Shown here: positions 3,280 through 19,137 of the stretch, in pieces
Layout of the letters: every line of letters begins with the position of its first letter
Position numbering within the stretch: the first letter of the stretch is position 1
Assembly (NCBI GenBank): GCA_964534625.1
Contig: CAZHRF010000050.1
Location: forward strand, 1-19,614
DNA from: an uncultured archaeon
GTDB taxonomy: Archaea > Asgardarchaeota > Heimdallarchaeia > Heimdallarchaeales > Heimdallarchaeaceae
Reading direction: 5' to 3'
DNA: 19,614 bases
The notes under the pieces: generated by a model
The model's database searches: none
What the model was told of the DNA's origin: nothing
What the model saw: only the letters and a program-made list of their open reading frames with translations
Program-made: the position numbers and the translations under genes

Positions 3280-3862
3280 TCAACTTTGAGATAATATGGC
3301 GAGGAGTTCGTGTGGTATTTCTTTCTCCATCGTTTCCTATAACAATTATTTTATCAGTATTAGTTTGTTTATGTTTTACCTAAATATTTTTTGGATTACC
3401 ATGTTTTATAAAATTATCAAAAAGATTAGTAAACACTTGACTTATCTTGATAGGATCACAAGAAACCGATCCTAGTGTGTCTTTTGTGAAAGTTATTGTT
3501 TTTGGGATTGTTACACTAGCTAATTTTTCAATGAGAAGATCAAGGTTAACATTTTCTTTAATTGATAATTGCATACCTGTCTCAACCATTAAAATGCTCT
3601 TTTCTATTAAATCAGAAATAAGTTGGATTCTTTTTTTTGCTCTATGAAGCAGTTCAGTATCATTGTTTTCAAGATAATAGCTTAAATAGCCGTCAATTGC
3701 TAGTAAAGAATTGTTTACATCATGACTAATGAAACTGACAAATTCATTTAAATCTTGTCTCTTTCTGTGTAGTTTTTTCTCTTTTTCTATGCGGTTTTTT
3801 ACCTCTTCTTTAAGCCTGAGGTTTTTATCCTCCAACTCTTTTTTTAACAGTTGGCTACAGTA
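3280..3862 (-). pseudogene. Degraded histidine kinase (HisKA + partial HATPase_c)
   Basis: ORF 3835-3380 has H-box FISHDVNN and N-box QVFTNLFDNFIKHG. Past the TAG at 3382-3380 the frame continues VKHKQTNTDKIIVIGNDG; skipping one base at about 3325 gives KEIPHELL (G1 box NDGxxIP). No G2 box was found, there is no sensor domain, and an in-frame TGA lies upstream at 3865-3863. Confidence 0.75.
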
Positions 3863-3925: not shown

Positions 3926-5023
3926 TCATTTTAGGAATCTTACTTGTAGATTCAACTTTATGTATAGCTCGCCATTTTCTTCATAAATCTTACCAAATTT
4001 CCATCTTCCTGAAGAAGCAGTATCAAGCTTTACATTATTCATTAGATAATGCGTAAACTCTTCACGTCCTATATGATAACAGATTAACTCCCCATCTTCT
4101 CTCGCAATAATGAATCCACTGGTTATATCAAAATCTTCATCCCATATTTCAGATGGTACCATCCCCAATGCCGAATGAATGATAAATTTCTTAACTCTGC
4201 TTTCATAAAAAGGCTGATTATGCTCAAGATCAAATCCACAAATGTTTTCCTTTTTTACTTGTTCTATTAAATCTAAAACTTTATTTCTTTTGGAGCTATA
4301 ATAATCTAAAACCATGGCACCCATTATTTGAGGCAAAGAAGTATCAATGAATTCCATGTTAAGAGTATATTCTTTTGAATCTATTCTATTAAAGCATAAT
4401 TTACCCCCCTTTTCTTCTATTTTCTTTAGTCTCTTTTTTATTTTATTCCTCGATTTGATTGAGTTTACTTCTTTTATAAGATTAGAATCATATTTCAATC
4501 CCTTGATTTTATAAACAAAATTTGTATTACCACTTGCATTTACTAGGGTTGCCGAGTTCCCTATTTGTGATTTGATACTAAAACCCATTTTCAAATCAAT
4601 ATCTTTTTCATAATCATGAACTACAATTATAATGTCGCTTGTTTCAGTATTATCTTGACGTATATGTTGTATTTTTATCCATTCCATAAATTGTTCAGTT
4701 TTGGGAAACGCAAAAGTTCTCTTTCTTTTCGGAGGATTTTTGAGTTTTCTTAGAAGGGTACTAGCTTCTTCTACAAATCTTTCAATTGGTACTTCTAGCA
4801 CCATTTCACCTGTATCTCCATTAACCACTTTTACAATGGAATTTCTTCTATATTCCCAGTTTTTTTCTTGTTCCTCTCTTATTATTGTAAGTATTTTGTA
4901 AAATTCTTCAGGTATTTTTTCTAGACTTTCATCTGCATGGTGTAATTTGCCTTCTGCCAGCAATTTAAAAAAGACATAAATTTCCGTCCATTCTCCTTTA
5001 TTTGCAGTTAGATGATTAGACAT
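3926..5023 (-). CDS. HpaII-family type II restriction endonuclease
   Basis: N-terminal NKGEWTEIYVFFKLLAEGKL, SDIIIVVHD, GFSIKSQIGNSATLVNAS and C-terminal IKLNLQVRF, all recalled R.HpaII-family signatures. The ORF is open from 5080; ATG 5023 is preferred from family alignment and the upstream TATA box. Confidence 0.92.
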   Translation of the reverse strand: MSNHLTANKGEWTEIYVFFKLLAEGKLHHADESLEKIPEEFYKILTIIREEQEKNWEYRRNSIVKVVNGDTGEMVLEVPIERFVEEASTLLRKLKNPPKRKRTFAFPKTEQFMEWIKIQHIRQDNTETSDIIIVVHDYEKDIDLKMGFSIKSQIGNSATLVNASGNTNFVYKIKGLKYDSNLIKEVNSIKSRNKIKKRLKKIEEKGGKLCFNRIDSKEYTLNMEFIDTSLPQIMGAMVLDYYSSKRNKVLDLIEQVKKENICGFDLEHNQPFYESRVKKFIIHSALGMVPSEIWDEDFDITSGFIIAREDGELICYHIGREEFTHYLMNNVKLDTASSGRWKFGKIYEENGELYIKLNLQVRFLK

Positions 5024-5045
5024 ATTGAATATTGTAAAACATGGG

Positions 5046-5062
5046 TTTTTAAATGTTTTCTG
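5046..5062 (-). promoter_or_regulatory. Putative BRE-TATA promoter of the endonuclease gene
   Basis: Minus strand CAGAAAACA-TTTAAAAA, with the TATA element 23-30 nt upstream of ATG 5023. Confidence 0.4.
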
Positions 5063-5089
5063 AATTTTATCTATTAACATTTGGCATTA

Positions 5090-6457
5090 CTATTTGTTTT
5101 TCTTTTTATTAGGTGGTAATTTAACAAAGTATGAATCTAACTTTCTGTTTTGATTTGTACGATGTTTTCCATTAAGCAATTGTCTAACTGTTTTTCTAAA
5201 GACTGATCTGTTTTCAGTATCCAATATTTTCTTATTCATTTGTACCATGGAACCATCAATTTTCAATAACCCATTTTTTTGCATAAAATTAAGCAGTTCC
5301 TTAAAATTGTCTACTCTTATACATTTCCTTTCAATATACCTTTCAATGGTAGAGACATACTTTCTTCCCGTTTCTGTTATTTGATTGTCTTCATAGAGAG
5401 AAACCATAAGATCTATGACTGTAAGTGTTTTTTCTTCATCTGCATTCAGTTTAATTATATCCTTCTTGTCCAATGCTTCTTTCATCTTTTTGGCTATTTC
5501 TTTTACTACTGGTATTGGGACGGAATTTGCTATTAATTTATACTTTCTAGTCATTGCAACAGGAAATTTATAAGACTCGGGGAATCCTTGTAATCTTGCC
5601 CATTCCCTAGGTGTCATTTTTCTAATTCCTTCGTTATTTCTTAAGCTGATATCATCTCCCTCTTTCTTCCAACAGTTTTCCAATATTTTGTCTTTAACAA
5701 GATTTCTTTCTTTTCCCATTCCTCCCAAAACTATAGTATTAGCTATACCATTCCTTGATACAACTTCGTAGCCAAATCCATGACCCTTTGCTTCATGTCT
5801 CGCTCTATGTTTTTTTAGACCATTTAAATATTCTTGTGATAAATAGTATTTATCTGGAACATCTTTTTGCAAGATATCGTCCAATACAGCTTCCTTATTT
5901 GTAGGTTCAGGAAAATCAAATGCCAATCTTTCTCTAAACCCTACTACATATATTCTCTCTCTGTTTTGGGGAAGTCCAAAATCTTTAGCGTTTAGGATCT
6001 TATAATATACTTGATATCCTAAATCTTTTGTTAAGACATCTTTAATTATTCTAAATGTTCTTCCTTTATCGTGATGTTTGAGATGCTTAACATTTTCCAA
6101 TAAAAAGGCTTCAGGTTTTTTTTCGCGTAATATTTTAGCAATATAGAAGAATAGAGTCCCCCTTGTATCATCAAACCCTCTTTTATGTCCAGCGAGAGAA
6201 AAAGCTTGACATGGAAAACCAGCCACAAGTATATCAAAATCAGGTATATTTGCCATACTTTCTTTTGTTATATCGCCATCAGGATCTTCGTTAAAATTTG
6301 CTTCGTAGGTTTTACATGCATACTTATCAATTTCATTTGCATAAACAAAGTCTATTCTATTTTCAAAAGCTTCTTCAAAAGCTATTCTTGTTCCACCTAT
6401 ACCTGCAAAAAGATCAATTGCTTTGTATATCTTATTTTCATCTGTTTGGACATTCAA
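5090..6457 (-). CDS. dcm: DNA (cytosine-5)-methyltransferase, M.HpaII-like (probable CCGG), with ~125-aa C-terminal extension
   Basis: Motif I DLFAGIGG, IV GFPCQAFS, VI LENV, VIII PQNRERIY, IX TPREWARLQGFP, X ANSV. The target-recognition region KYYLSQEY..RHEAKGHGFGYE..IANTIVLGGMGKERNLV closely resembles M.HpaII as recalled. Adjacent to an HpaII-family endonuclease. Confidence 0.96.
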   Translation of the reverse strand: MNVQTDENKIYKAIDLFAGIGGTRIAFEEAFENRIDFVYANEIDKYACKTYEANFNEDPDGDITKESMANIPDFDILVAGFPCQAFSLAGHKRGFDDTRGTLFFYIAKILREKKPEAFLLENVKHLKHHDKGRTFRIIKDVLTKDLGYQVYYKILNAKDFGLPQNRERIYVVGFRERLAFDFPEPTNKEAVLDDILQKDVPDKYYLSQEYLNGLKKHRARHEAKGHGFGYEVVSRNGIANTIVLGGMGKERNLVKDKILENCWKKEGDDISLRNNEGIRKMTPREWARLQGFPESYKFPVAMTRKYKLIANSVPIPVVKEIAKKMKEALDKKDIIKLNADEEKTLTVIDLMVSLYEDNQITETGRKYVSTIERYIERKCIRVDNFKELLNFMQKNGLLKIDGSMVQMNKKILDTENRSVFRKTVRQLLNGKHRTNQNRKLDSYFVKLPPNKKKNK

Positions 6458-6501: not shown

Positions 6502-6909
6502 TTATGTGACATTCAATTCTGCTTCAATTTTCAAGACAACTTCATCTATGTTCTTTTTTATTTCATGTCCCCAAAACCTTAATACGATCCATCGCTCTTT
6601 TTTCAGCTTCTTATCAACTTTTTTTGCTCTGTTCTTATTTTGTTCAAATTTATTTAACCAAAATTCCTTGTTAGTTTCAGGTATTTTTCTACATTCGGGA
6701 CATCCGTGCCAGAAACACCCATCACAGAAAATAGCTATTTTCTTCTCTGGAAATGCTATATCAATTTTTGCCACTTGTTTGTATTGGGTTTCGAATTTGT
6801 GCCCTCTTTCTTCTAATGCTTCTTGAAGCGCTTTTTCTATTCCTGTATCTTTTGTTTTGATTTTACTCATAAATCGACTTCTCTCTTTTTTTGTAAATAT
6901 ATCGGGCAT
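6502..6909 (-). CDS. vsr: Very short patch repair (G:T mismatch) endonuclease
   Basis: N-terminal D..T...RS..MS.I...DT..E, KIDIAF, FCDGCFWHGC, TNKEFW..K...N..R, VLRFW; sits next to a C5-methyltransferase. Confidence 0.93.
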   Translation of the reverse strand: MPDIFTKKERSRFMSKIKTKDTGIEKALQEALEERGHKFETQYKQVAKIDIAFPEKKIAIFCDGCFWHGCPECRKIPETNKEFWLNKFEQNKNRAKKVDKKLKKERWIVLRFWGHEIKKNIDEVVLKIEAELNVT

Positions 6910-12357: not shown

Positions 12358-15300
12358 TCAATTTCTTTTAGTTGTACTGTATTTTATTAGAGCAATACTG
12401 ATTATCGATATACCAATGATCACTACGTGGATAAATGAAATGGATTTTGTTAATTCTTCTTCATTTTCATCATCAGGGAGATCATCATCGTCATCCTTAG
12501 TTTCTTCTAGGGGACTAATTGTTAAATTGATTATATCACTTTCCGCTGTATTCTCTGCAGTATCTGTAGCTACAATATAAAAGTCTACTACAGTACCCGC
12601 TTCTAAAGGTCCAATGGTTACTGAATAGGTTGATTCATCTTCAGAAGACATACTAAGGTTCTGCCATGAACCGCTATTCGTCCTATAGATTAAAAGCACA
12701 GTGTCCACTTTAACATTATCTTCTACTATAGCGGTTACAGTTATTTCATCATCTTCATGTGGATTTTCTGGCATATAGTTTATGTTACTTATTACTGGCG
12801 GTATGTCGTCTAGTATAGTTAAAGAGATTATATCGCTTTCCGCTGTATTCTCTGCAGTATCTGTAGCTACAATATAAAAGTCTACTACAGTACCCGCTTC
12901 TAAAGGTCCAATGGTTACTGAATAGGTTGATTCATCTTCAGAAGACATACTAAGGTTCTGCCATGAACCGCTATTCGTCCTATAGATTAAAAGCGCAGTG
13001 TCCACTTTAACATTATCTTCTACTGTAGCGGTTACAGTTATTTCATCATCTTCATGTGGACTTTCTGGTATATAGTTTATGTTACTTATTACTGGCGGTA
13101 TGTCTTCTACTATAGGATAAAGATCCTCTGAACCAGCTGAACCATCAATAGAATATGAGCCAGAACCTGACCAATCAGACCATAAATTCCCTCGCTCAAG
13201 TGTCTCATTGTACCATGTATTATTTTCCCCACTATCATATGCTTGAGAGGAGCTTCCCCCATTATCAACAAAGAGATTATTGTAAATGGTAGCCTCTATT
13301 CCTGAATCTATGTAGATACCATAGTTTGAGTTATCGTAAATATTATTGCTAGTAATAATGTTGCTATCTGCTTCGTTTAAATAAATTCCATACAAATTCA
13401 TTAGTAATGAGTTATTGATTATAGTGTTATGGTTAGAAGTCCATAACCCCATTCCAATTTCTTCATGATTGGTGATTGTGTTGTTACTAAAAATATTTGT
13501 TGTTGATGAATCGCCTATATTGAAACCACGCCAGTTATCTGATAAAGTGTTATTAGTTATAGTATTGTTGCCAACATTCCATAAACCCATTCCTATTTCT
13601 TCATGATTGGTGATTGTGTTATTAGTAAAAATGTTTGATACACACCCATCTCCAATGTTAAAACCTCTCATATTGTTAGACAAAAGATTACTAACTATCG
13701 AATTTGTCTCTGCATTCCACATCCCTATTCCAATCTCGTGATTATTCTTAATTGTATTATTCTCGATAAGATTAGAGAAAGAATTATTTTCTAGTATCAT
13801 ACCATAATCATTTATGTCAATAGTATTAGATTCAATAATACTGTCTGAAGCATCAGATAAATATATCCCAATCCAATTATTAGTGATTTTATTATTAATG
13901 ATTTGTCCATTACTAACCGAGGTTAAGTTTATCCCTATACCACTCCCATAGACAAAATTCTCTATTTCACAATTTTCTATAACGAAATGTGCATCAGTAT
14001 TCGTGATTTTTATTCTTGCTGTTCCGGTATATGAGATATAATAACCTTGAATTCTGTAAGGATCTTCTTGTGTTCCTGTTCCTGGAAAACCATACTTTAA
14101 ACTGAAATCATCGTTGCTTTCAATTATTATTGGGTCAGTAATCATTAAATCCGTTACCTTGACATTTGTAATAATAAGATTATTTTTTATATATTCTTCA
14201 TCTGGAACAGGCTCAACATAAGCAGTTATATTGTAAATAGAAGTATCAGATGGTGTCCATTCATAGGTTAGGGTGTAATTTTCCTTAGGTTCCAAACTTT
14301 CAATGATTACACTCTCGACCATCACTTCATTGATATATAGATACATTTCCACATTATTTTCTGTATGGAGACCATTGTTGATTGTTGTTGTATTTAATAA
14401 CAAGGTTTCTCCAAATTTGCTAATTGTATCGACTTCAAGCTGTATAAAGAGATCATGTTCTGGGAATCCTTCCATTGCCCTTGAAGCATTAATTCTCCCA
14501 TGCCCAAATTGTACATCAAACCCTTCTGGACCAAGATCATCAGCAGTTAGATAAAGTAATTCTGTAACTTGTTCTGATGTATAATGGGAGAATTCACTCA
14601 TAATAAGAGCAATAAGTCCCGATACATGAGGAGTAGCCATAGAAGTACCGCTTAAATAATCGTAATTATTTCCCGGTATTGTGGAAAGAATATTTACTCC
14701 GGGAGCAGCAACAGCTATTTCTTCTCCATAATTGGAAAATGAAGCCAAATTATCTTCTTGATCAGTAGCACTCACAGCTATTACATCGGGCAAATTGGCA
14801 GGAAAACTTACTGGACCACCATAATCATTACCTGCTGCAGCTACAACGATACTTCCATTATTAACCGCATTAGTAACCGCATCAGCTATTATTTGAGAGT
14901 AACTACCTCCACCCCAACTATTACTAATGACATGAGCACCTTGCTCTGCAGCATGATCTATTGCAGCAGCTGCGTTAATATCACCAGTGTAATTCCCATC
15001 TCCATTGAATATTTTCTCGGCAAAAATAGAAACATTAGCGACACCAGCTATACCTAGACCATTGTTAATAATTGCTGCTACTGTACCAGCACAATGAGTA
15101 CCATGATAATGATCATCAAATGGATCATTGTCATCATTATACCAATCATAACCAATATCCAGATATGCATCTGCTAAATCTTCGTGGTTATAATCAATTC
15201 CAGTATCAACAATAGCCACACGAATGCTTCTATTACCAGTATTGACTTCCCAAGCATCTTCTAGGCCTATTAACTGCGGACCCCACTGATTATGCCAACT

Positions 15301-15939
15301 AGGATCATTAGGTGTAAAAAGAAGTGAACGATATTGATGAGGCTCTAGATAATCAAAACCTAAAATATCTTCAAGTTGTGATTGTAACTGATCAACTAGC
15401 CCTATAGGGACTTTTACTACATATGCATCTAATCTACTCTGATTTATTACAATTTCTGCTTCAACATTATTCAAAACCATCTCGAAGTAATTTATATCAA
15501 AGTTTTTGTCTACTTTTATAACTACTTCAATAGCATTATCCACTATTTTCATGATGGGTGAATTGCTGAACGAGTTTTGAGCAACAGAATAGTGATTTGG
15601 TTCATAGTAGTAATAATCAGAACCAGGTTGTGTGATCTGAAAATACTCCTTTTTTGGGCTAAAGCTGTTTTTATAGTTATAAATTGTTTGACCAAAATTA
15701 CTGGAAGAATAGTTAACTTTTATATTCTTTTCACTCAAATTTGATTGTTCATATTTTTTCCCCCTACTTATCTCTTCATGCGTATATTGTTGATTATTAA
15801 AATAATCGTAAAAAAAGGCAGTAGGCTCTGATATGTCCTTACTTGACTGAGTTTTTCCACCTGAAAAAAAACTGGTGGAAAAAACAGTTGATGCAAGTAT
15901 TATAGCTATTACAATTAAGCTAATCTTTTTTTGTTTCAT
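12358..15939 (-). CDS. Cell-surface subtilisin-like serine protease (S8) with propeptide, CARDB-like domain, NosD/CASH-like beta-helix, two Ig-like repeats and C-terminal TM anchor
   Basis: Signal peptide; catalytic motifs IVDTG, HGTHCAG, GTSMATPHV and oxyanion AAAGN; NNTI..N..GI beta-helix repeats; duplicated 99-aa beta-sandwich; acidic linker, TM helix and basic tail. Confidence 0.93.
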   Translation of the reverse strand: MKQKKISLIVIAIILASTVFSTSFFSGGKTQSSKDISEPTAFFYDYFNNQQYTHEEISRGKKYEQSNLSEKNIKVNYSSSNFGQTIYNYKNSFSPKKEYFQITQPGSDYYYYEPNHYSVAQNSFSNSPIMKIVDNAIEVVIKVDKNFDINYFEMVLNNVEAEIVINQSRLDAYVVKVPIGLVDQLQSQLEDILGFDYLEPHQYRSLLFTPNDPSWHNQWGPQLIGLEDAWEVNTGNRSIRVAIVDTGIDYNHEDLADAYLDIGYDWYNDDNDPFDDHYHGTHCAGTVAAIINNGLGIAGVANVSIFAEKIFNGDGNYTGDINAAAAIDHAAEQGAHVISNSWGGGSYSQIIADAVTNAVNNGSIVVAAAGNDYGGPVSFPANLPDVIAVSATDQEDNLASFSNYGEEIAVAAPGVNILSTIPGNNYDYLSGTSMATPHVSGLIALIMSEFSHYTSEQVTELLYLTADDLGPEGFDVQFGHGRINASRAMEGFPEHDLFIQLEVDTISKFGETLLLNTTTINNGLHTENNVEMYLYINEVMVESVIIESLEPKENYTLTYEWTPSDTSIYNITAYVEPVPDEEYIKNNLIITNVKVTDLMITDPIIIESNDDFSLKYGFPGTGTQEDPYRIQGYYISYTGTARIKITNTDAHFVIENCEIENFVYGSGIGINLTSVSNGQIINNKITNNWIGIYLSDASDSIIESNTIDINDYGMILENNSFSNLIENNTIKNNHEIGIGMWNAETNSIVSNLLSNNMRGFNIGDGCVSNIFTNNTITNHEEIGMGLWNVGNNTITNNTLSDNWRGFNIGDSSTTNIFSNNTITNHEEIGMGLWTSNHNTIINNSLLMNLYGIYLNEADSNIITSNNIYDNSNYGIYIDSGIEATIYNNLFVDNGGSSSQAYDSGENNTWYNETLERGNLWSDWSGSGSYSIDGSAGSEDLYPIVEDIPPVISNINYIPESPHEDDEITVTATVEDNVKVDTALLIYRTNSGSWQNLSMSSEDESTYSVTIGPLEAGTVVDFYIVATDTAENTAESDIISLTILDDIPPVISNINYMPENPHEDDEITVTAIVEDNVKVDTVLLIYRTNSGSWQNLSMSSEDESTYSVTIGPLEAGTVVDFYIVATDTAENTAESDIINLTISPLEETKDDDDDLPDDENEEELTKSISFIHVVIIGISIISIALIKYSTTKRN
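12529..13104. repeat. Intragenic tandem duplication, 297-bp period (99 aa)
   Basis: 12529-12807 versus 12826-13104: 279 nt aligned by eye, 5 mismatches, no gaps. Confidence 0.95.
13435..13770. repeat. Degenerate 138-bp (46-aa) periodic repeat in the beta-helix region
   Basis: NNTI(T/K)N..EIG(M/I)G(L/M)W occurs three times; matching nucleotide anchors at 13454, 13592 and 13730; TCATGATTGGTGATTGTGTT is identical at 13463 and 13601. Confidence 0.75.
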
Positions 15940-16269: not shown

Positions 16270-19137
16270 CTAGTCTCTCTTCATTTTTTTATTGTATGTA
16301 TGTACTATTATCCCACCTATCAACATTGATAGACTAATCATTGTAATTGGGGCGAAAGAGATTCTATTCATTTCTTCTTCTGTCTCTTCAGTCTCTGGAG
16401 TAGTTTGATCGGTTTGTGTTTCATCACTATGTTCAATTTCGAAAGAGATAGTCTCACTTTCTACAACATTGCCAGATGTATCAGAGGCAAAAATATAGAA
16501 CTCTATAGTTGTTTCTGCTTCAAATGGACCAATTGTGGTAGAATAAATGGAACCATCAGCTGTCATCGCTTTATGTTGCCAATTTTCTTCATTAGTCCGA
16601 TAATACAATTTTACATTTTCTAACTCCACGTTATCTGTTACGTGAGCAGTAATAGAAATTTGGTCATCATCAGTAGGAGAACTAGGAGAGTAAACTATAT
16701 CCTGGATTGTAGGAGCTATGTCATCTTCAGGAATATTGTATATTTGAAAAGGTATTAGTTGACCAATTGATAATCCATTATTGTCTTGTGCTATAAAGTT
16801 TAATTGATAATAGCCGTTTACATAATTAGTTGTATCTAATGTAACTATTAACTCGTCTGTCGAAGTATTATACTCTATTCCTTGTATAGTCATTGAAATG
16901 CTTTTTATTCCAGAATAATCTGAAGCTTGGGCAGTAATTGTGATGTTCCCTGAAACTTTTTCTTCTTCAGATATACCATATACTGATAGTTCTGGGGATA
17001 CATTGTCAAAATTGACCTTGTAGATATTTAACCCGAGCAGAGATCCAATATACAGTTTACTATTTGTGGAACAGTAATCCATTCTTGAGATAAAATAGGT
17101 AGATAATCCATGTTCTTCACCTTCCCACTTTAATAAATTATTTGTACGATTATATGCATACAATCCTCTATTTGTTGAAAAGAAAATTTCATTTCTTGTA
17201 GGTATGTAGTATATGTCATTTACAGTAGGTATCCATGATGAAGAATGAGAAAAATCTTCGAAGGTTTTGGTGGTGGGATCATATATCCTTACTAAAGGAT
17301 GTGTATCTAGTCCAATCCATATTTTTCCTTCAATCAAAGCTACTGTTTTTATATTTCCTTCAGTTTCAAAGTATTTCTGTTCAACTTCTAGGGTTTCTAA
17401 ATTAAAGATAACAAGACCTAAATTTGTAGCAACATATAATAGATCATCTGAGGGATCATGTAAAGTCTTTTCTACAGTAAGAAGAGATTTATTAAATCCA
17501 AAATTATGTACTGTGTAATTTTCAGTTATCCGATTATAAATGATTAATGAGCCATTGCTTCCACCTGGCGATTGATAAGGATCCTTGCTCCCTACTGAAT
17601 AATAAATGAGCGTATCATTAGGAGATGAAGATATGTCTTTTATGTGTCCGTATTCATCAAATGGGAGAGATAATTCAGAATAGTTACCAGCTGTAATATT
17701 GTACTGGTAGCGGTGATGAAACATTAATCTATCAGCTATTAGAAGTTCACCTGCAGTAGACCCTCCAGAACCTGGTGCTTCAATGAGTAGCTCAATGTGC
17801 TTTGTATGGGGATCAACTCGGTTTAATCCTAAAAGAGTGGAAATAAATAGTTTATCCTCTTGAGGATCATAATTAACATCAGAAGCAATATTATGAGCTA
17901 ATCCTTCAATTGGACTTTGTGTAAGGTTGGATGTGCCTTCGGGGTCAAAATCCAGTATTTGGATTCTGCGAACAGTACCAATAACTATTTCTCTTGTAGA
18001 ATTGATTAAGGCACTTGTTGCCAATAATCCTTCAATATACGGATCTGTATCTAAGAATGGTAATGTTGAACTACCCGCTCCATGCTGAGAACGGGTTATC
18101 CCTTGCATTGTTGTAATGTTAAAAATATACAATCCACATTCAGCATTGGGTGTATAGAAAGACGCTACATATCCGTAGTCACGAAGTGGATCTAAGACCA
18201 AACTGCTTACAAACATCGGATTGAAATCGCCTGTTGTAAGTGTATAATTGTGAACAGTATTATTATTTAGAAAAATAACCGATAATCCGCCACTAAGTGA
18301 CATTTCCTCTGAATCATCAACTGTATGGAAAAACAGTCTGTTATATTCGGGAGAATGCTTAACCAGACGAGTAAAATTGTATGCCATACCATCATCAGTA
18401 GAGAAGTGTGTGGTTGTATTGGTTGTTGTATTTAAGGCATAAATACCCGAAGTTGAACCAAAATAAAAGATTTCATTATCTTCATCTTGATCAATAGCTA
18501 ATAACCCATCTGAAGGAATATCGAATTCAGTATGGTCGACTTGTTTCTCGTTAATAGGATCATAGATATAAAGCCCAGTGTCTGGAGCAGCTACCCAAAG
18601 ATAATGAGTAGAAGGATCAACATACATATTGTGTGCAGTACTGAACCCTAAAGACCCAAGTCCTATATGCGCAATAAATTCCACTTCATAAGGAATTCGG
18701 GAATAGTTTAATACATCTAAACTGATAATGGTCTCAATGTATAAGAGTTTGAGCTCTATATCGATGGCTAATCCTATAATATGGGATTCAGATAACCCAA
18801 TTTCTATTCCATAATCAGAACGATTGGTAAGATCGTCTAATTGGATAACAGCTAACCCCTTGTGGGAGTTCGTAAAGATCACATTGTCTTCTTCACTTAT
18901 TGCTAAAGCAGTATGACCTGGAGATCCATAAATAGTCGAAAAAGCTGTTTCTTCACTGGCTAATAAATTAATAGTATTTAGTTGTGCATTATGGCTTTGA
19001 GAGAGATGAGTAGAAGAAGAATTGACCAGATTTTTCCGAATAATAGAATCGTTTCTAGAAACGATAGGAGTGGTAATTAGTGAAAATAACAATATGAAAC
19101 TAATAAAGACAAAAACTGTCTGTTTAAAAGGTTTCAT
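16270..19137 (-). CDS. Secreted, C-terminally anchored surface protein with beta-propeller repeats (two-component regulator propeller-like) and two Ig-like domains
   Basis: Signal peptide; blade motifs GLSESHIIGLAID, DDGMAYNFTR, GLAHNIASDV, GLSTYFISRMD and repeated G(L/I)y(I/A)(y/f)(D/N) strands; Ig-like VSGNITITAQASD..G domain; Ig-like domain homologous to the protease repeats; T/E-rich linker, TM helix and KKMKRD tail. Confidence 0.8.
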   Translation of the reverse strand: MKPFKQTVFVFISFILLFSLITTPIVSRNDSIIRKNLVNSSSTHLSQSHNAQLNTINLLASEETAFSTIYGSPGHTALAISEEDNVIFTNSHKGLAVIQLDDLTNRSDYGIEIGLSESHIIGLAIDIELKLLYIETIISLDVLNYSRIPYEVEFIAHIGLGSLGFSTAHNMYVDPSTHYLWVAAPDTGLYIYDPINEKQVDHTEFDIPSDGLLAIDQDEDNEIFYFGSTSGIYALNTTTNTTTHFSTDDGMAYNFTRLVKHSPEYNRLFFHTVDDSEEMSLSGGLSVIFLNNNTVHNYTLTTGDFNPMFVSSLVLDPLRDYGYVASFYTPNAECGLYIFNITTMQGITRSQHGAGSSTLPFLDTDPYIEGLLATSALINSTREIVIGTVRRIQILDFDPEGTSNLTQSPIEGLAHNIASDVNYDPQEDKLFISTLLGLNRVDPHTKHIELLIEAPGSGGSTAGELLIADRLMFHHRYQYNITAGNYSELSLPFDEYGHIKDISSSPNDTLIYYSVGSKDPYQSPGGSNGSLIIYNRITENYTVHNFGFNKSLLTVEKTLHDPSDDLLYVATNLGLVIFNLETLEVEQKYFETEGNIKTVALIEGKIWIGLDTHPLVRIYDPTTKTFEDFSHSSSWIPTVNDIYYIPTRNEIFFSTNRGLYAYNRTNNLLKWEGEEHGLSTYFISRMDYCSTNSKLYIGSLLGLNIYKVNFDNVSPELSVYGISEEEKVSGNITITAQASDYSGIKSISMTIQGIEYNTSTDELIVTLDTTNYVNGYYQLNFIAQDNNGLSIGQLIPFQIYNIPEDDIAPTIQDIVYSPSSPTDDDQISITAHVTDNVELENVKLYYRTNEENWQHKAMTADGSIYSTTIGPFEAETTIEFYIFASDTSGNVVESETISFEIEHSDETQTDQTTPETEETEEEMNRISFAPITMISLSMLIGGIIVHTYNKKMKRD

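Follow-up and report, generated by a model that had tools for sequence, protein, structure and literature searches.

A PIP-box-like tail on the methylase of an HpaII-family restriction-modification system suggests docking to the host clamp in an Asgard archaeon

Restriction-modification (R-M) systems and the PIP box, the motif by which proteins dock on PCNA, are each known already; for the combination of an R-M methylase with a clamp we found no description in the literature searched, which included few subscription papers. Closest to it comes an observation from Pyrococcus abyssi, in which an adenine methylase co-purifies with NucS and PCNA (PMC4929162); a 2025 review counts among open matters how protective marks are propagated as DNA replicates, and makes no mention of clamps. 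The PIP boxes of archaea are C-terminal, Q at position 1 is absent from 34% of 77 confirmed PCNA motifs, and affinity for PCNA is increased by basic flanks (PMC6881253); in haloarchaea the consensus is QxxLxxFx (PMC7776575). Among C5-cytosine methylases, M.HpaII targets the inner cytosine of CCGG (PMC11879396), and eukaryotic DNMT1, which carries a CXXC and other regulatory domains and prefers hemimethylated DNA ~80-fold (PMC10359454), gains only 2-fold from PCNA binding, which is not required (PMC1934996).

The locus described here lies on contig C50 of a 3.37 Mb, 89.8% complete genome from a microbial mat metagenome. By the window we mean the whole stretch of DNA analysed (19,614 nucleotides). 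The region is letter-for-letter identical and gapless in four DNA runs (all from one study, possibly the source), and no RNA run was listed as carrying the operon, which bears neither way on its expression. On its minus strand, an operon encodes, in order, Vsr (6909-6502), a C5 methylase (6457-5090) and an HpaII-family endonuclease (5080-3926), with the following features:

6502..6909, minus strand: Vsr T:G mismatch endonuclease (PF03852, TIGR00632 above cut-off)
5090..6457, minus strand: methyltransferase gene, entire (455 aa, TTG start)
5480..6427, minus strand: C5-cytosine methyltransferase catalytic domain (aa 11-326; PF00145 E 5e-100; TIGR00675)
5165..5443, minus strand: winged-helix domain (aa 339-431, pLDDT ~90)
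5126..5152, minus strand: PIP-box-like motif Q-NRKLDSYF (aa 436-444; N437 at position 1, L440 at position 4, Y443-F444 at positions 7-8)
5093..5125, minus strand: basic C-terminal flank (aa 445-455, net charge +5, low pLDDT)
3926..5080, minus strand: HpaII-family restriction endonuclease (PF09561 E 2.5e-109)

The methylase belongs to the C5-cytosine DNA methyltransferases (PF00145), with the catalytic Pro-Cys and motifs I, IV (Cys83), VI, VIII, IX and X all intact and a catalytic domain ending at about aa 326-331. Its gene adjoins a PF09561 endonuclease gene, the arrangement that identifies an HpaII-family Type II R-M system, as do the genes of relatives L007, L010, L012 and L138. We read it as a mobile HpaII-family (CCGG) Type II R-M system in an Asgard archaeon, with recognition of CCGG and methylation of its inner C predicted from the endonuclease family. 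The methylase gene occurs in 11 of 400 Asgard genomes and in none of 30 other members of the host's family. CCGG is absent from the operon and found at 1,152 sites in the host genome. The endonuclease probably starts at an ATG at 5023 rather than at 5080, as the Pfam and homolog matches open at residue ~20-27. Scans for repeats and sigma-70 sites near the operon gave results at chance level; a related-locus search with the methylase alone returned 2 distant loci, and one with the host PCNA as query returned none.

Other genes of the window include, directly downstream of the R-M operon, a short HisKA histidine-kinase ORF (3380-3835, minus strand) that has an early stop in the ATPase domain and is possibly broken, and a membrane histidine kinase with a VUPS domain (vitamin uptake-like sensor, PF20973; 132-1610, plus strand). 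By reading, two large minus-strand products look secreted, one subtilisin-like with beta-helix repeats (12358-15939) and one beta-propeller-like (16270-19137), and their C-termini appear to have in common a repeat domain of similar kind and a membrane anchor.

A preliminary description of this DNA had named a bacterial host lacking PCNA as one finding that would count against clamp docking; the host is instead an Asgard archaeon of Heimdallarchaeaceae type, whose genome contains an archaeal 16S rRNA, and it encodes one PCNA (contig C1; L001:1495-2301), whose named relatives are from Heimdallarchaeaceae or Heimdallarchaeota (63-67% identity). The motif itself, NRKLDSYF at aa 437-444 (nt 5149-5126) preceded by Q436, is confirmed from the ORF translation. 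The tail had also been described as probably disordered, with a basic cluster behind the motif, and this agrees with pLDDT values below 50 from aa 432 onward in both structure models and with net flank charges of +2 before and +5 after the motif. The methylase thus presents a terminal, disordered site with basic flanks, the setting expected of a PIP client. The original picture of a methylase with a PIP-like tail needs one amendment, in that the tail is present but does not directly follow motif X; a winged helix of ~95 aa stands between them. Measured against the strict consensus Qxx[LIM]xx[FY][FY], positions 4, 7 and 8 fit and position 1 is N; RNase HII, NucS and PolB of the host likewise lack Q there. 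The full-length structure model is poor in the recognition region, and a complex predicted for host PCNA with the tail (aa 424-455) scored 0.45, against 0.58 for one unrelated control, a result that speaks neither for nor against binding. We rejected a PIP-degron reading, as there is no TD at positions 5-6 and a Pro stands at +4.

PIP-box C-termini are found in the host on the RFC large subunit, Fen1, DinB, Hel308, UDG, NreA, PolD DP2, PolB, NucS and RNase HII. That of RNase HII (QNRKLEEYF) is identical to the methylase tail (QNRKLDSYF) at 7 of 9 residues. Position 1 of the RNase HII motif is mostly T, S, N, E or K, and not Q, in 20 further genomes of this family, which makes N normal there for the lineage. 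The idea that the tail DNA was captured from the gene for host RNase HII is not supported: codons for the residues in common show several synonymous differences, and the flanking sequences are dissimilar.

The bare spacing [LIM]xx[FY][FY] is uninformative, occurring at 128 of 2,653 host C-termini where control windows give 130 and 124; [QN]xx[LIM]xx[FY][FY] is only weakly enriched (19 host C-termini versus 11 and 9). We therefore rely on a profile built from 10 host replication and repair clients and scored on the 2,653 host C-termini. On this profile the methylase motif ranks 11th, and not one of 25,127 internal 30-aa host segments attains its score; when RNase HII and NucS are left out of the profile, the methylase ranks 24th and 0.36% of internal segments attain its score. 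No PIP-like end was found on the endonuclease or on Vsr, both of which score below 2 bits at both ends, the endonuclease below 1 bit. Judged by its sequence, the tail is probably a PIP box of the host's own type, and we expect, with good though not full confidence, that the tail peptide binds the host PCNA. The proteome offers further candidate PCNA clients: a 341-aa protein with a strict PIP box and no Pfam hit (C30:8056-9081, plus strand), a DUF2797 protein (C1:114146-115066, plus), a DUF72 protein (C24:15942-16793, minus), a 177-aa protein without an assigned family (C16:47373-47906, plus) and a TGT-family protein (C13:41689-42867, minus).

Tails of this kind are not confined to the C5 methylase. 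Four of the 8 DNA methylases found in the host, the C5 enzyme included, have a terminal profile score above 10 bits, and the remaining 4 have no such motif. An Eco57I-type methylase (C21:11699-13285, plus strand) has a strict PIP box with the top score of the proteome, a D12/Dam-type methylase (C107:2437-3327, minus strand) has a PIP-like end, and an N6/N4-type methylase (C4:104855-106102, minus strand) has a PIP-like N-terminus. Since these unrelated adenine/N4 methylases have such ends, the PIP-like tail is not tied to 5mC or to CpG.

A quick tree built from 193 core domains places the enzyme in a clade of 77 rows (SH-aLRT 91, no bootstrap), the labelled members of which are all Asgard, most rows being unlabelled metagenomic proteins. 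The pattern [QN]xx[LIM]xx[FYW] occurs in 26 of 67 clade tails, versus 3.6 +/- 1.8 in shuffles, and at 127 of 2,653 host C-termini (4.8%); scores of at least 5 bits on profile positions 1-7 are reached by 30 of the 67 tails, versus 5.5 in shuffles and 6.9% of the host proteome. Clade members are kin rather than independent, so that shuffle counts of this kind overstate significance, and some of the patterns were picked after inspection of the tails. The strict C-terminal PIP box is found in 0 of 67 tails: position 8 is often non-aromatic, and many tails read QxxLxxF, resembling the haloarchaeal consensus. In roughly half of the clade neither end carries a scoring motif, so the motif is dispensable. 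The expectation that the motif would be conserved in otherwise variable archaeal tails is borne out in the Asgard clade, where it recurs far above shuffles in about half of the members, though never as a strict C-terminal PIP box.

The placement of the motif also varies. It is present in 18 of 33 clade members with the winged helix and in 12 of 33 without it, and in a sub-branch that lacks the C-terminal motif, a strict PIP box stands at the first residues of P0044, P0047 and P0050, with a similar sequence in P0057; P0050 begins MQIRIDQYF, and its gene adjoins an HpaII endonuclease. Within a bacterial branch, an archaeal member from Methanomethylophilaceae (L030) has a PIP-like tail (8.6 bits), whereas its bacterial neighbours have none. 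One kind of motif is thus found in at least three placements, which argues for selection. Two loci of the Asgard clade have an HhH-GPD glycosylase in place of Vsr (L138:1002-1667 and L139:2767-3477), likely an alternative T:G repair partner, and one Asgard contig (G241:C5) carries three HpaII-like methylase genes within ~11 kb (L009, L017 and L018), one of them split.

The nearest relatives outside the clade are bacterial R-M methylases; in the nearest bacterial branch, the core is 50-57% identical and the genes mostly adjoin an HpaII-family endonuclease. As the preliminary description had anticipated, the PIP-type motif is at chance level in bacterial tails (2 of 39 versus 0.7). Bacteria have a different clamp-binding motif, QL[SD]LF, which binds the beta clamp. 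QLx[LFI], which is of this type, ends 9 of 39 bacterial tails versus 0.7 expected by chance, and Qxx[LI]F stands directly before motif I in 13 of 49 bacterial N-terminal extensions versus 0.7. QxxLF before motif I is present in 80 of 118 members of one bacterial branch, in which the neighbouring linker residues are equally conserved; given this conserved linker, the motif before motif I may be structural, and the C-terminal cases would weigh more. Beta-clamp-type motifs on some bacterial relatives make clamp docking look like a general trait rather than something new to archaea. Gene fusions occur among these relatives: in a Clostridium locus (L049, ORF from ~2994, plus strand) a single frame of 693 aa encodes both the methylase and the HpaII-family endonuclease, and in five Bacteroidota loci (L036, L043, L048, L051 and L052) Vsr precedes the methylase and shares its frame fully or almost so, as Vsr-methylase fusions.

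For the winged helix that separates the catalytic domain from the tail, fold searches returned no more than generic winged-helix matches, the best being to the MCM8 winged helix (Z 8.0; rmsd 2.1 across 68 residues), and we claim no kinship with MCM8 or Cdt1. The domain may serve in DNA binding or in protein contact. When 1.84 billion representatives were searched with its profile, only 29 proteins matched, methylases among them. The same domain forms the C-terminus of an Asgard family of ~700-770 aa with no Pfam hit (E 1e-13 to 1e-9; hhalign probability 98%), members of which include P0294, P0295, P0302, P0304, P0309, L140:5001-7130 and L142:5001-7262. This family often has a PIP-like end, such as QGINSFF in P0295, and is present in 12 of 400 Asgard genomes; with the same query it was not found in the host genome. 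One member is encoded in GCA_008000775.2, which we take to be Promethearchaeum syntrophicum MK-D1. In both loci examined (L140 and L142) the gene follows an ORF of ~200-230 aa. Atlas features indicate an AAA/KAP-like P-loop fold, and no Walker A motif was found in the family. A module of winged helix plus tail may have moved between the methylase and this family.

We consider it fairly likely that, through its tail, the methylase is held on PCNA at replication forks and repair patches, so that hemimethylated CCGG is completed faster and the chromosome is kept safe from the untethered endonuclease. L440, Y443 and F444 would enter the hydrophobic pocket of PCNA, with the basic flanks lying on the acidic surface of the clamp. 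PCNA left behind the fork on new DNA could hold the methylase near hemimethylated CCGG sites, and PCNA loaded at repair patches, for example those opened by the Vsr of the operon, could do likewise; Vsr repair of deaminated 5mC would itself leave hemimethylated sites at such PCNA-loaded patches. By speeding full methylation, the tail would keep the chromosome protected from a cognate endonuclease that has no such tail. The site is palindromic, and a hemimethylated daughter is usually already protected. Given this protection, and the 2-fold effect in DNMT1, the gain from clamp tethering may be small.

The same observations could be read as a chance likeness, or as a hydrophobic end that packs on the winged helix or on another subunit and never binds PCNA. 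The bare LxxYF spacing is indeed common, N replaces Q, and the motif drops to rank 24 once the two training motifs closest to it are left out; set against this, the motif recurs in the clade at either end, is nearly identical to that of the host RNase HII, and has low pLDDT and no packing in the models, and we regard this reading as unlikely. Alternatively, the tail could bind PCNA and yet be of little use to the methylase, having been inherited within a winged-helix-plus-tail module from another Asgard protein. The match of the winged helix to the C-terminus of the ~700-770 aa family, several members of which have PIP-like ends, fits such an origin, which is nevertheless quite improbable in our judgement, as short members without the winged helix end in the motif too, others carry it N-terminally, unrelated host methylases also have it, and the motif in the methylase looks tuned to the host's type.

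The preliminary description had linked the enzyme to DNMT1 and to CpG maintenance, that is, to a methylase that prefers hemimethylated DNA and copies a CpG pattern as an epigenetic system. A C5 methylase that bears a PIP-like motif, in an archaeon closely related to eukaryotes, invites this comparison, M.HpaII methylates the CpG cytosine that such a system would use, and CCGG is the 4th most depleted 4-mer of the host genome (o/e 0.76); GGCC (0.64) and GCGC (0.78), however, are as depleted as CCGG. The link is not supported, as the enzyme is a patchily distributed Type II R-M methylase with intact endonuclease and Vsr alongside, found in the few Asgard genomes and in none of the other family members counted above, with bacterial R-M methylases as its nearest outside relatives. 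A gene of the DNMT1 type would be a conserved host gene without a cognate endonuclease; here the endonuclease is present and the gene patchy. Nor was a DNMT1-type N-terminal regulatory region (RFTS, CXXC, BAH) found: the catalytic domain starts at aa 11, with no Pfam hit to any of these domains and no CxxC. Because a cognate endonuclease would require methylation of all sites, there should be no pattern to copy, and we hold a DNMT1-like role to be very improbable. The best reading is clamp tethering of an R-M methylase, matched to the host clamp, rather than a DNMT1-like epigenetic system.

On this best reading, R-M methylases would acquire a terminal motif for the host's own clamp, and the Asgard methylase would be one case of a wider habit. 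We put forward tentatively, at somewhat less than an even chance, that R-M methylases of both prokaryotic domains are commonly clamp-tethered, the motif being gained or swapped according to the host and the endonuclease remaining free of the clamp; the motif types in such swapping would be the PIP box in archaea and the QLxLF type in bacteria, at either the N- or the C-terminus. If true, this would be a general, undescribed way for protective methylation to keep pace with replication and repair, and would mean clamp-coupled 5mC writing in Asgard archaea, independent of DNMT1. The link between DNMT1 and PCNA would then be seen as a solution at which methylases arrive again and again, and not as the trace of an Asgard ancestor of DNMT1. 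The locus contributes one family with C-terminal, N-terminal, absent and beta-clamp-type forms, plus a shared winged-helix module. As a model the HpaII-family clade is well suited, since forms with a tail, without one and with an N-terminal tag can be compared with one another and with bacterial relatives. A clamp-docking tail on R-M methylases allows a direct test with one peptide, one double mutant and one small clamp.

Compared with the systems already described, DNMT1 is likewise a C5 methylase with a PCNA motif (putative in the present enzyme), but its motif lies within a long disordered region, unlike the terminal tail here (PMC6881253), and we see none of its CXXC and other regulatory domains in the methylase; the sequences give no sign of a common origin of the two motifs. 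The HpaII R-M system (M.HpaII, R.HpaII and vsr) and its bacterial kin share with this locus a C5 methylase adjoining a PF09561 endonuclease and Vsr. Bacterial HpaII-family methylases, however, stop shortly behind motif X, and in many of them QxxLF directly before motif I is present instead of a PIP-like tail, whereas the Asgard methylase adds a C-terminal winged helix and the PIP-like tail. We take M.HpaII to carry a QxxLF motif near its N-terminus and presumably to resemble the methylase in its recognition region. Archaeal PIP clients (RNase HII, Fen1, the RFC large subunit, PolB, PolD DP2, NucS and NreA; PMC4929162) have the same terminal, loose tail with a hydrophobic residue at position 4 and aromatics at positions 7-8, and differ in that no R-M methylase is among the clients given in the reviews consulted. 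The bacterial beta-clamp motif, putative on methylases, follows the same logic as the PIP tail, with another clamp and another spacing.
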